Positions 55,601 to 58,600 of a DNA stretch of 64,000 nucleotides are shown here, piece by piece. The position numbers were made by a program. The stretch's first letter is position 1, and each line of letters opens with the position of its first letter. This stretch comes from Escherichia coli (lineage in GTDB: Bacteria > Pseudomonadota > Gammaproteobacteria > Enterobacterales > Enterobacteriaceae): NCBI RefSeq assembly GCF_024298765.1, contig NZ_CP101210.1; one strand, written 5' to 3'.

Positions 55601-58600
55601 CTGCCCGGCACTTGTTGACGCGGCGCTGGCAGACGACGCAGCCGCTGTTTTTGAGCCTGCCGCAGCTGAGGCACTCTGTCCCGCTGCCGTTTCAGAAGAC
55701 TTAGCGTTCGTCTCGGACGTTTTGGCCGCCTTCGCAGAATTTGCTGTCGCCGTTGCCGAGGAAGCTGCGCTGCTGGCGCTCGAGGCTGCGCTCGTTTCTG
55801 ATGATTTTGCCGCCTCTTTTGAAGCTGACGCATCCCGGGCTGAGGTGGCAGCTTCTGACGCTTTCGTGGTCGCGGTGGATGCAGAAGTGGCTGCTGATTG
55901 TTGTGACGCTGCCGCATTCGTTTCTGACGTTTTCGCCGCAGCGGCACTGGTGGCCGCCGCGCTTTTTGAGGACTCTGCAGCGGCAGCACTTTTTTCCGCT
56001 TCAGTGGCCTTTGTTGATGCCGTTCCTGCGCTGGAAGACGCTGACTGAGCCGACGACGCGGCCTGTCCGGCTGACGTGCTGGCTGCGCGTGCTGAGCCTG
56101 CAGCATCAGTCGCATGGGTTGCCGCCTCACGGGCTGATGTGCCGGCATCGCTGGCTGACTTCTTCGCGGCTGCCGTGTTCTGTGCCACCGCGGACGCGTT
56201 ACGCGCCACCTCTTCCACCATCAGTTCAAAACGGCGCAGAGCCTCAGGACGGGCATCATCCTCTGTCATGGCACCGAGAAAATCATTCAGCGTACCGGGT
56301 TGAGAATCTTCATACACGGTGATGGTCCCGGCATGTGACGGCGGGAATCCCTCCACCAACAGAATAACGCTGTACTGACCGTACTCAACGTCCATACTGT
56401 AACGCCCGGCTTCATCCGGATTTTCAGATGCCAGCGTGTTCACCACCACCGTGGTGCTGTTACGTTTTGCTTTCAGCTGGATTGTGCAGTTCTGTACCGG
56501 TTTTCCTGTGCCGTCTTTCAGTACACCTGAAATCTTTACTGCCATATTCACCCCACAAAAAAGCCCGCCTGAAACGGCGGGCTGTCATAACACTGTGTTA
56601 CCTGGCTAATCAGAACTTATAACCGACACCCACGATGAAACCATCAGTGCGCCAGTCACCACTGCCGGAACCTTCATAAGCAATATCAATGGCCACGGAT
56701 TCGGTCGGGTTAAACTGCACGCCAGCCCACCACGCCAGAGACGTGTTGCTGTGGCGACCGTCATCACTTCCGGTCAGCACATCATGCGTTTTCCCCTTGT
56801 TGTCAGTTACGCGGAGATAATCCCCGGAAAAAGTCGACACACGGCTGTAAGCCACGCCCGCCATCGCATACGCACTGAACCATTCATTCACGCGCACAGA
56901 GGGCCCCGCCATCACGCTGAACCAGCGGTTACGCACAGAATCTTCATGCCAGCGGGTATCGCTGTAACGGGTCAGCTGGCGATTCTTGTCTCCTGCATAG
57001 CTGAATGACGTCACCATCCCCAGCGTATCCGTAAACTCATAACGGTATTTCACGTTAATCCCGTTCAGATCATCGCTGCCGGGAACGTTGGTCGAGGCAT
57101 GAAGATACCCCGCGCTCAGCGTGGACTGATGTTCAGATGCCCATGCAGGCGCACCGGATACGGCCAGACAAATGGCTGCGGACAAAATTGCTGCACAAAC
57201 TTTACGCATAATTACCTCTCGCTTTTCTGCAATAAAAAAGGCACCATTTCTGGTGCCCTTATATGGGTTATAACAATTTCAACGAATACTGATGCCGGAA
57301 GCGGCTTTTTTGGTCACAATCACCGTACAGTCGGTGATATTACCTGCCCACTGATTGCCTTTATGGAAAACCTTAAACTCCAGAGTGACGCTTCCCCTGC
57401 CACTCGGCATATCAATAACCGCACTGTAGCTACCGGGAATGGCCCCTTTAGTTTCTCTGGATGCGATTAATACACCGTTTTTGCGAACTTCAAAACCATA
57501 ACCCGTGTATCTTGTACCTCCCGGGTTATTACCACTTCCCGGATCGCTATACGCTATTCCGTTAAAGATAATGGGCGGAATAATGATTTGACGGTCAAAG
57601 TTATGATCATCGCTGATGGTGACTGTAACCGTCCCGTTTGGTGTTTCCGTATTACCCCACGTACCAGCCTGTTTCGGGAATGATTTGGATACAGCTTTAA
57701 CGAAGTCACCTCTGACCTGAGTCGCCTCCAGCATGCCCTTAATCGTACAGTTTTCATTTACCGTGACATTGTTGAGCGTCCCGGCGTTCGCATTCACACT
57801 GCCACTGATATCCGCATTTTTAGCGGTCAGCTTTCCGTCCGGTGTCAGGGAAAATGCCGGTGGATTTCCACCGCTGGTAATGGTGGGGGCCGTCAGGCGT
57901 TTCAGGAACACGTCGTTCATGAATATCTGATCGCCCTGACCAACAAACATCGGTTTTGTGTTGCCATTCGCAGGATTAACCATCGCAATCCTGTCCGCCG
58001 CCAGCAGCACCTGACTCTGCATGCCGTCAGGGGTGTTCTCAATACCGGCACCAATACCCGCGATATAAAGGCGTCCGTCCTGCATCTGCTGCAGCTTCAC
58101 AGCCCACATGCTGTTCAGGTTATTATTTGTATCAACCTGAACTTTCTGTATCTGCTGGATTGCCGCACTCTGGTCTTCCAGTTTTTTATTGACGGTCTGC
58201 GTGATTTCATTGCTGACATTCGTAATGGACGTCCTGATTTCAGCCAGGTCCGGCGCAAGCTGACCGTTATCAATCTGCGTCCACAGCTCCTGGGCCAGAT
58301 GTGTTTTCCCGATTTCTCCTTTGAAAAAATCCAGGTAACCTTCCGCATCATCGCTCGCCCGACCGACAGCCTCCACGAATGCCGATTTGCCAACAGTGTT
58401 CACACTGCGAACGTAAAAATAATAATCATGACCCGGCTTGATATTGATACTGGCAGCTATCCAGTACAGCGCCGTGCCAAGATAGCGGGCTGTAGTTTCA
58501 ACCTGCCTGATATCGGTAATCCGCTTTTCCGAGAACCAGAACTCAAACTGTACCGTCGGGTCATAAACGGCAAGATGCGGCGTTGCGGTTATCTGAAAAT

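Follow-up and report, generated by a model that had tools for sequence, protein, structure and literature searches.

Which outer-membrane protein would a phage tail recognise when its central fibre is lambda-like for most of its length and then ends in something else? We consider this question for gene J of a lambda-like prophage in Escherichia coli (NCBI RefSeq assembly GCF_024298765.1, contig NZ_CP101210.1), which lies in a stretch of 64,000 nucleotides (nt) that was analysed as a whole and is referred to here as the window. A preliminary description had flagged positions 57279-58000 as part of a J protein that begins like lambda J, is longer than it and may differ at its receptor-binding end, with the suggestion that a receptor other than LamB is possible. 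We find that the receptor-binding end is of the phage-434 host-range type and sits on a shaft of the phage-21 type, and that this 434-type J domain of a lambda-like prophage most probably recognises OmpC and not LamB (a reading to which we give a probability of roughly 0.8). The gene itself is placed as follows:

57279..60776, minus strand: gene J, central tail fibre or tip attachment protein (open reading frame (ORF), alignment to PDB entry 8iyk, Pfam domains)

In the ORF list of the window, J is a single uninterrupted frame of 3498 nt with an ATG start, encoding 1165 amino acids (aa). A phmmer search aligns its aa 1-1164 to residues 1-1131 of the solved lambda J (8iyk, E = 0), and six J-specific Pfam domains lie along it in the expected order, all above the curated cut-offs:

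aa 86-207 of the window J: FNIII-A_GpJ
aa 330-498 of the window J: Phage-tail_3
aa 610-714 of the window J: Ig_J
aa 716-818 of the window J: Ig_J_second
aa 872-1000 of the window J: Phage_Tail_Tip
aa 1029-1164 of the window J: Ig_GpJ_C (PF12421), the C-terminal receptor-binding domain

Because of this end-to-end alignment and the six J-specific domains, a chance resemblance to J is out of the question. The full architecture of the lambda gpJ family is present in its proper order: hub domains, the pair of fibronectin type III (FNIII) and immunoglobulin-like (Ig) domains, the tail-tip fibre and the Ig-like receptor-binding domain. The gene is as long as J of the viable phages cdtI, Ayreon, phi458 and ev099, and 57279..60776 encodes an intact J of a lambda-like prophage. 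Compared with lambda J (1132 aa; NC_001416, 15505-18903) it is indeed longer, by 33 residues. The overall BLASTP identity to lambda J is 82% and very uneven along the protein; lambda J ends in ...VQVMVIKKQALGISVV, and the C-terminus of the window J is not lambda-like.

To locate this unevenness we compared J with its counterparts in lambda, 434 (OL657226), 21 (OL657228) and cdtI (AB285204) at the protein and nucleotide level, computing identities per alignment window and per segment, with nucleotide alignment windows of 150 nt and 60 nt. The protein divides into four modules, listed here with their amino acid identities and with the position of the residues that account for most of the extra length:

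58317..60776, minus strand: module 1 (aa 1-820), the backbone of hub and two FNIII/Ig domains; lambda 97.2%
57948..58316, minus strand: module 2 (aa 821-943), phage-21-type alpha-helical shaft and beta-prism top; lambda 35%, 434 37%, phage 21 97.6%, cdtI 98.4%
58179..58271, minus strand: 28 residues that lambda and 434 J lack, within aa 836-866
57768..57947, minus strand: module 3 (aa 944-1003), conserved junction; lambda 93.3%, 434 90.0%, phage 21 88.3%, cdtI 100%
57279..57767, minus strand: module 4 (aa 1004-1165 plus stop), Ig-like receptor-binding domain of the phage-434 type; lambda 38%, 434 94.4%, phage 21 41%, cdtI 98.8%

The backbone bears out the expectation that the N-terminal part is lambda-like; its protein is also 97.7% identical to lambda h434 J, and over gene nt 1-1800 the 150-nt windows give 93-99% nucleotide identity to all of lambda, 434, 21 and cdtI (the lower identity of some references at 1801-1950 reflects reference sequences that stop within the alignment). 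Over module 2 the picture changes abruptly: in 60-nt windows, nucleotide identity is 3-70% to lambda and 434 and 93-100% to 21 and cdtI. The mosaic boundaries are equally sharp in nucleotides and in protein. J is thus a recombinant of interchangeable modules: a lambda backbone, a 21-type shaft, a conserved junction and a 434-type domain. The junction is the place at which J modules recombine; lambda aa 964, used by Brodel et al. as the graft point for J chimeras (PMC11338833), has its equivalent within module 3.

Where do the 33 extra residues sit? The match to phage 21 over aa 821-943 includes the 28 additional residues, which appear as gaps of 5+16+7 in BLASTP alignments with lambda and lambda-h434 J and map inside the helical shaft of lambda (residues 809-861; PMC11101478). 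A single-sequence AlphaFold2 (AF2) model of aa 800-960 predicts helices here, among them a single long one over aa 841-899 with a predicted local distance difference test score (pLDDT) of 63-87 for the block; the model as a whole is weak (mean pLDDT 54). We infer that the 28 residues lengthen the shaft. The arithmetic closes exactly: 1165 - 1132 = 33 = 28 in the shaft plus 2+6+1+2-6 (net +5) in the receptor-binding domain. In the same way, J of lambda h434 imm21 (1137 aa) plus the 28-residue shaft insertion makes 1165 aa, and this insertion is essentially the sole difference from the window J. The flagged positions 57279-58000 take in the receptor-binding domain, the junction and, of the shaft module, the final ~18 codons. 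The greater length is therefore real, while 28 of the 33 residues that cause it lie at 58179-58271, outside the flagged interval. The known J lengths of 1132 (lambda), 1137 (434), 1160 (21) and 1165 (window) correspond to two shaft types combined with three domain classes, and the window J is a clear example of this modular exchange, in which shaft types and domain classes recombine at a conserved junction.

We now turn to the class of the receptor-binding domain. Near-identity of the C-terminus to lambda J, the outcome that had been set as the refutation of a divergent end, was not found: identity to lambda J is 36.9% over the last 155 aa and 38% over aa 1004-1165, with insertions and deletions (indels) relative to the LamB-binding domain of lambda (J residues ~983-1132). 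Against phage 434 J, aa 1004-1165 align at 94.4% identity with no gaps; 'Lambda h434 imm21', the classical lambda hybrid with the host range of phage 434 (PMC9119081), has a J that agrees with the last 155 aa at 95.5% identity, and the last 22 residues are shared exactly with lambda h434 J. In near-identity, indel pattern and C-terminal end alike, the domain belongs to the 434 (h434) class. The same last 155 aa occur with 100% identity in ev099, PhiR49_1, Perceval and several Stx1a/Stx2c phages. A tblastn search with these 155 aa against 50,697 phage records shows that the classes are discrete: 74 records match at 90% or more, none at 60-90% and 169 at less than 60%, lambda (36.9%) among the last. 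Protein fragments belonging to the 434 class turned up in E. albertii and Shigella sonnei as well in a homologous-protein search; its hits were mostly short partial J fragments, which served for the domain alignment and not for counting full-length architectures. As a side observation from the tblastn search, the record MW057783.1, 'Campylobacter phage CJLB-4' (48,361 bp), matches at a lambda-like position with identity (36.9%), E-value and bit score equal to those of lambda, and it looks like a lambda sequence under a wrong name.

Structure prediction places this divergent sequence on a familiar fold. The AF2 model of aa 960-1165 has a mean pLDDT of 79, with 80-94 over most of the domain, and its top PDB matches in Foldseek are the lambda central fibre (8xck/8xcj, E = 1e-17), followed by matches to the A8 fibre, alone or in complex with OmpC (9wca, 9wcb; 9wcb E = 3.5e-15). 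A8 and 1A2 are gpJ chimeras in which natural prophage C-termini on lambda J switch the receptor from LamB to OmpC (PMC11338833), and they indicate that OmpC is a frequent target of E. coli J domains. We rejected A8 and 1A2 as the class of the window domain, which is 48% identical to A8 and ~45% identical to a 1A2-like domain, as judged from the PDB sequence and from machine-read, error-prone supplement DNA. The fold is common to the window domain and A8, and the window J would work like A8 without being a member of its class; the likeness supports the mechanism and not membership.

How firmly does the domain class point to a receptor? Phage 434, and lambda carrying the 434 tail-fibre gene, use OmpC (PMC3509688; PMC11101478). 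Because the window domain is 94-95% identical to this 434/h434 type, OmpC is the most likely receptor of the window J by homology and literature, and the earlier suggestion of a receptor other than LamB gains support from the 94.4% match to the J domain of an OmpC-using phage. That the C-terminus of gpJ can carry such a switch is established by the swaps of Brodel et al., where replacement from lambda aa 964 onward moved receptor use off LamB; delivery by the chimeras was tested in a lamB/ompC double deletion and was restored by plasmid-borne OmpC (PMC11338833). A related gpJ domain, that of A8, has been solved bound to OmpC (9wcb). Ge and Wang describe a clash between an OmpC loop and the lambda-type domain (PMC11101478), which is consistent with the altered segments of the window J described below.

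K-12 strains make OmpC. Phages with a near-identical J form plaques on K-12, Ayreon having been isolated on a K-12 derivative and phi458 plaquing on MC1061. By analogy with lambda, the J trimer would close the tail tip and hold three receptor-binding domains at the end of the fibre; binding to a trimeric outer-membrane porin would then make shaft and prism rearrange, and in this way the tail would open. The porin recognised would most probably be OmpC rather than LamB, the domain being of the 434 (h434) type, and the triggering mechanism is presumably the same as in lambda J. Virions, if made, should target OmpC-bearing rather than LamB-bearing cells, which affects host-range prediction, transduction potential and the expected routes to resistance (ompC or ompR/envZ, not mal/lamB); a correct annotation is the main value of the assignment.

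The domain differs from that of lambda in four places, which we list before weighing what they may mean for specificity:

57636..57671, minus strand: hypervariable segment 1 (aa 1036-1047), +2 aa at lambda 1011/1012
57507..57554, minus strand: hypervariable segment 2 (aa 1075-1090), including GNNPGG, +6 aa at lambda 1051/1052
57426..57461, minus strand: hypervariable segment 3 (aa 1106-1117), +1 aa at lambda 1078/1079
57336..57365, minus strand: hypervariable segment 4 (aa 1138-1147), +2 and -6 aa at lambda 1099-1114

The indels are taken from BLASTP against lambda J. With variability measured as column entropy, these four segments are also the most variable stretches among 26 domain sequences from several classes. 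In the AF2 model, segment 1 is mostly non-strand, interrupted by short strands, and the cores of segments 2-4 (aa 1079-1086, 1109-1114 and 1140-1144) lie in loops between beta-strands. Across 1207 natural J homologues, Maddamsetti et al. found peaks of gap entropy at lambda residues 1012, 1049, 1077 and 1107, and residues 1012 and 1107 were both needed for the laboratory shift of lambda to OmpF (PMC6646904). Segment 1 coincides with 1012, segment 2 lies near 1049, segment 3 near 1077, and segment 4 spans 1107. We infer that the four segments correspond to L1-L4, the bottom loops through which the receptor is contacted according to Ge and Wang.

Several observations weigh against OmpC as the receptor. 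In the accessible literature we found no adsorption experiment for the window J or for cdtI, Ayreon, phi458, ev099 or mEp332, and no receptor is given for the closest phages in the Ayreon paper, the phi458 paper or Mathieu et al. 2020. The lambda h434 hybrid also carries lom, stf and tfa of 434, and for this reason its sequence alone cannot separate J from Stf, the side tail fibre, as the determinant of OmpC use; the attribution to J rests on classical mapping cited in PMC3509688 and PMC11101478. A8 and 1A2, the variants for which use of OmpC has been shown directly, are of domain classes other than that of the window J. The window holds only the tail end of the prophage. Finally, 13 substitutions separate the window J from phage 434 J between aa 960 and 1165 (from 434 to window: N971S, A974V, P979S, A998S, V1006I, E1008Q, S1032A, Q1036K, A1037V, N1047D, S1077D, R1127G and W1143R); nine of them fall within aa 1004-1165, and five (Q1036K, A1037V, N1047D, S1077D and W1143R) are in or beside the hypervariable segments. 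A receptor-prediction preprint of 2026 covers the GpJ of Drexlerviridae and left lambda J out of its alignment.

The alternative that survives best, unlikely as we consider it, is that the gene is an inert remnant: the prophage would be defective and J never assembled into virions, which would leave its receptor specificity without a present role. The window contains only H-M-L-K-I-J-lom-stf-tfa of the phage, with IS1 and fragments of insertion sequences (IS) just past tfa, and in strain 104 (NZ_CP029164.1), where the 3' end of J is 100% identical, the head region is disrupted: the major capsid gene of the corresponding prophage is truncated, and the region shown has no annotated terminase or portal. 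Against this stand the uninterrupted 3498-nt ORF, of the length found in viable phages, and the prophage of FDAARGOS_1286. This is the closest complete genome for the region (99.6% over 13.3 kb, window 44000-57300), and its prophage has the full gene set, from an integrase next to ybhC through to tfa next to ybhB. The full set in FDAARGOS_1286 and the disruption in strain 104 show that the same J occurs in intact and in disrupted prophages. The remnant explanation concerns activity and not identity, and it is compatible with recognition of OmpC by the domain as encoded.

Two further alternatives accept a porin and doubt the equivalence with 434. Since five substitutions lie in or beside the variable segments, allele specificity could differ from that of 434. 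It is conceivable, and we regard it as a rather doubtful proposition, that 434 J and this combination of a 434-type domain with a 21-type shaft longer by 28 residues differ in function, the substitutions retuning binding to OmpC alleles (of avian and other wild E. coli) and the shaft altering reach or the triggering threshold. If this were true, one would expect host OmpC and surface structures to co-vary with the type of shaft and the micro-alleles of the domain. Less probable again is that the substitutions relative to 434 in or beside the variable segments give a target that is narrower than or different from K-12 OmpC, for example certain OmpC alleles or another general porin like OmpF. 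In its favour, of the nine substitutions relative to 434 that fall within aa 1004-1165, five are found in hypervariable segments or next to them, where variation within the 434 class concentrates as well; the natural variants A8 and 1A2 accept different OmpC alleles (PMC11338833), and a few point mutations enable lambda J to use OmpF (PMC6646904). It sits poorly with the phages isolated or plated on K-12 whose last 273 aa are similar (Ayreon 97.8%, phi458 99.3%), and with sequenced phage isolates whose last 155 aa are identical (ev099, PhiR49_1, Perceval). Finally, that the domain still binds LamB, its divergence being drift or adaptation to LamB alleles, is very improbable: the shared Ig-like fold (PF12421; Foldseek E = 1e-17 to 8xck/8xcj), the 38-41% identity to the lambda domain and the service of LamB to many unrelated phage receptor-binding proteins speak for it, whereas the domain is 94-95% identical to 434/lambda h434 domains reported as users of OmpC rather than LamB, carries indels relative to lambda in all four variable segments, and belongs to a set of discrete classes with nothing at 60-90% identity in the phage records.

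With recognition of OmpC as the preferred reading, we ask how the window J compares with named phages. Phage 434 and lambda h434 (OL657226; OM418627) share its domain (94.4%), indel pattern, C-terminus and the order J-lom-stf-tfa; 434 J itself is 1137 aa long with a short lambda-type shaft, in contrast to the 21-type shaft and 28 more residues of the window J, and the side tail fibre has 437 aa in phage 434 against 1135 aa in the window. Lambda J (P03749; 8iyk, 8xcj, 8xck) is of the same family, domain order and fold, with 97% identity in the backbone and 93% in the junction; it differs in its shaft (35% identical, 28 aa shorter) and in its domain (38%, with four indels), and it binds LamB. 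Phage 21 J (1160 aa) has a shaft 97.6% identical to that of the window, 28 extra residues included, combined with a receptor-binding domain of another class (41-44% identical). By eye in alignments, the domain of phage 21 J (locus L006, 3694-7176) resembles the OmpC-binding A8 class; OmpC would be plausible as the receptor of phage 21 if its domain is of the same class as A8.

The combination seen in the window is found whole in other phages. cdtI, Ayreon, phi458, ev099 and mEp332 have the same 1165-aa architecture of 21-type shaft and 434-type domain, with 94.5-99.3% amino acid identity over the last 273 aa. Their J genes have the length of the window gene and are 94.5-96.4% identical to it in nucleotides over the whole gene; the value is 95.5-96.4% for cdtI, Ayreon, phi458 and ev099, and 94.3-94.9% for Kati, PhiR34_1, mEp332 and others. 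Within J, these phages differ from the window only by scattered substitutions (in cdtI, shaft 98.4% and domain 98.8% identical). Outside J, the cargo, the immunity and the site of integration are different: cdtA and a truncated cif are found in cdtI, and for Ayreon integration into the gene for release factor 3 (RF-3, prfC) is predicted (Ayreon paper). Long-tailed Stx1a/Stx2a/Stx2c phages have a 434-type C-terminus as well, with 89-94% identity over the last 273 aa and, in some, 100% over the last 155 aa.

The same holds for bacterial genomes. We searched 5426 complete E. coli genomes, counting the 434-type domain as present where at least 80% of its DNA was covered, and found it in 2083 of them. 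A 1022-nt stretch comprising part of the 21-type shaft, the junction and the domain, annotated as gpJ in RefSeq, is present in 1163 genomes, with 98 records at least 99% identical. The lambda-type domain was found in 98 genomes, all at least 99% identical, and the top of the list is made up of DE3 lysogens and of laboratory strains of K-12 and B. Among complete E. coli genomes, then, the LamB-type domain of lambda itself is rare (98 versus 2083 for the 434 type). The window J allele is a common natural variant, present in characterised phages and already known to specialists.

The surroundings of J in the window are those of a lambda-like tail operon. According to the window ORFs and the annotations of matching genomes, the order is H-M-L-K-I-J-lom-stf-tfa, next to ybhB-bioA. 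I, K, L, M and the 3' end of H lie upstream of J, and J is followed by lom, stf and tfa in the order of lambda, 434 and cdtI:

56610..57209, minus strand: lom, Ail/Lom outer-membrane protein (Pfam Ail_Lom, E = 4e-121; synteny with lambda, 434 and cdtI)
53144..56551, minus strand: stf, side tail fibre of 1135 aa (Pfam phage_tail_N, Gp34_trimer, Collar)
52563..53144, minus strand: tfa, tail fibre assembly chaperone of 193 aa, 93% identical to lambda Tfa (orf-194)

The stf product is the second adsorption component of the same virion. It has a long, Ala/Ser-rich repetitive middle, and over its last 230 aa it matches lambda Stf (orf-314) at 70% identity, His-rich GAHxH repeats included. Within these 230 aa, the stretch aa 1016-1073 (about 53330-53506) diverges from lambda Stf. 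Lambda Stf binds OmpC, and given this divergent stretch the target of the window Stf may therefore differ from that of lambda; both adsorption proteins of the window prophage may be tuned to porin variants. Wholly inside tfa and on the same strand, Rfam IS009, a candidate small RNA, is matched at 52603-52801 (minus strand, 229 bits against a gathering score of 117).

Beyond tfa the window continues with IS1, an AraC-family regulator and IS fragments, and then with ybhB, bioA, bioBFCD, uvrB and the moa operon. The tail-gene end of the prophage faces ybhB-bio, the same side as J in a lambda lysogen. The elements between tfa and ybhB are:

51061-51758: IS1
50096-50848: AraC-family regulator of 250 aa, in DNA of 33-39% GC
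49323-50054: transposase and integrase fragments

Together, 49323-51758 make up non-phage cargo between tfa and ybhB, and the annotations of strains 104 and FDAARGOS_1286 show this arrangement too.

The prophages of these two strains offer some observations of their own. In FDAARGOS_1286, a gene annotated as 'porin' lies between the Q antiterminator gene quuD and the lysis genes (locus L008, 18230-19327; NZ_CP069893.1, 4130229-4131326), and an iss/bor-like gene follows the lysis genes. The lambdoid phage PA-2, which uses OmpC, has a porin gene of its own, lc, and OmpC is lowered when lc is expressed; the pairing of a prophage porin with an OmpC-type J would be in keeping with receptor masking. 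In strain 104 (locus L003, 1-9212), the truncated major capsid gene precedes the tail genes. Upstream of it lie a DUF262/HEPN pair and a block that resembles a capsid-encoding satellite: the block has a primase, a single-stranded DNA-binding protein (SSB) and an Icd-like gene, together with a major capsid gene and a head decoration gene of its own. Two ordinary host elements in the window are the Moco riboswitch upstream of moaA (39370-39514, minus strand, 103 bits) and naRNA4 (19391-19461, plus strand, 73 bits).

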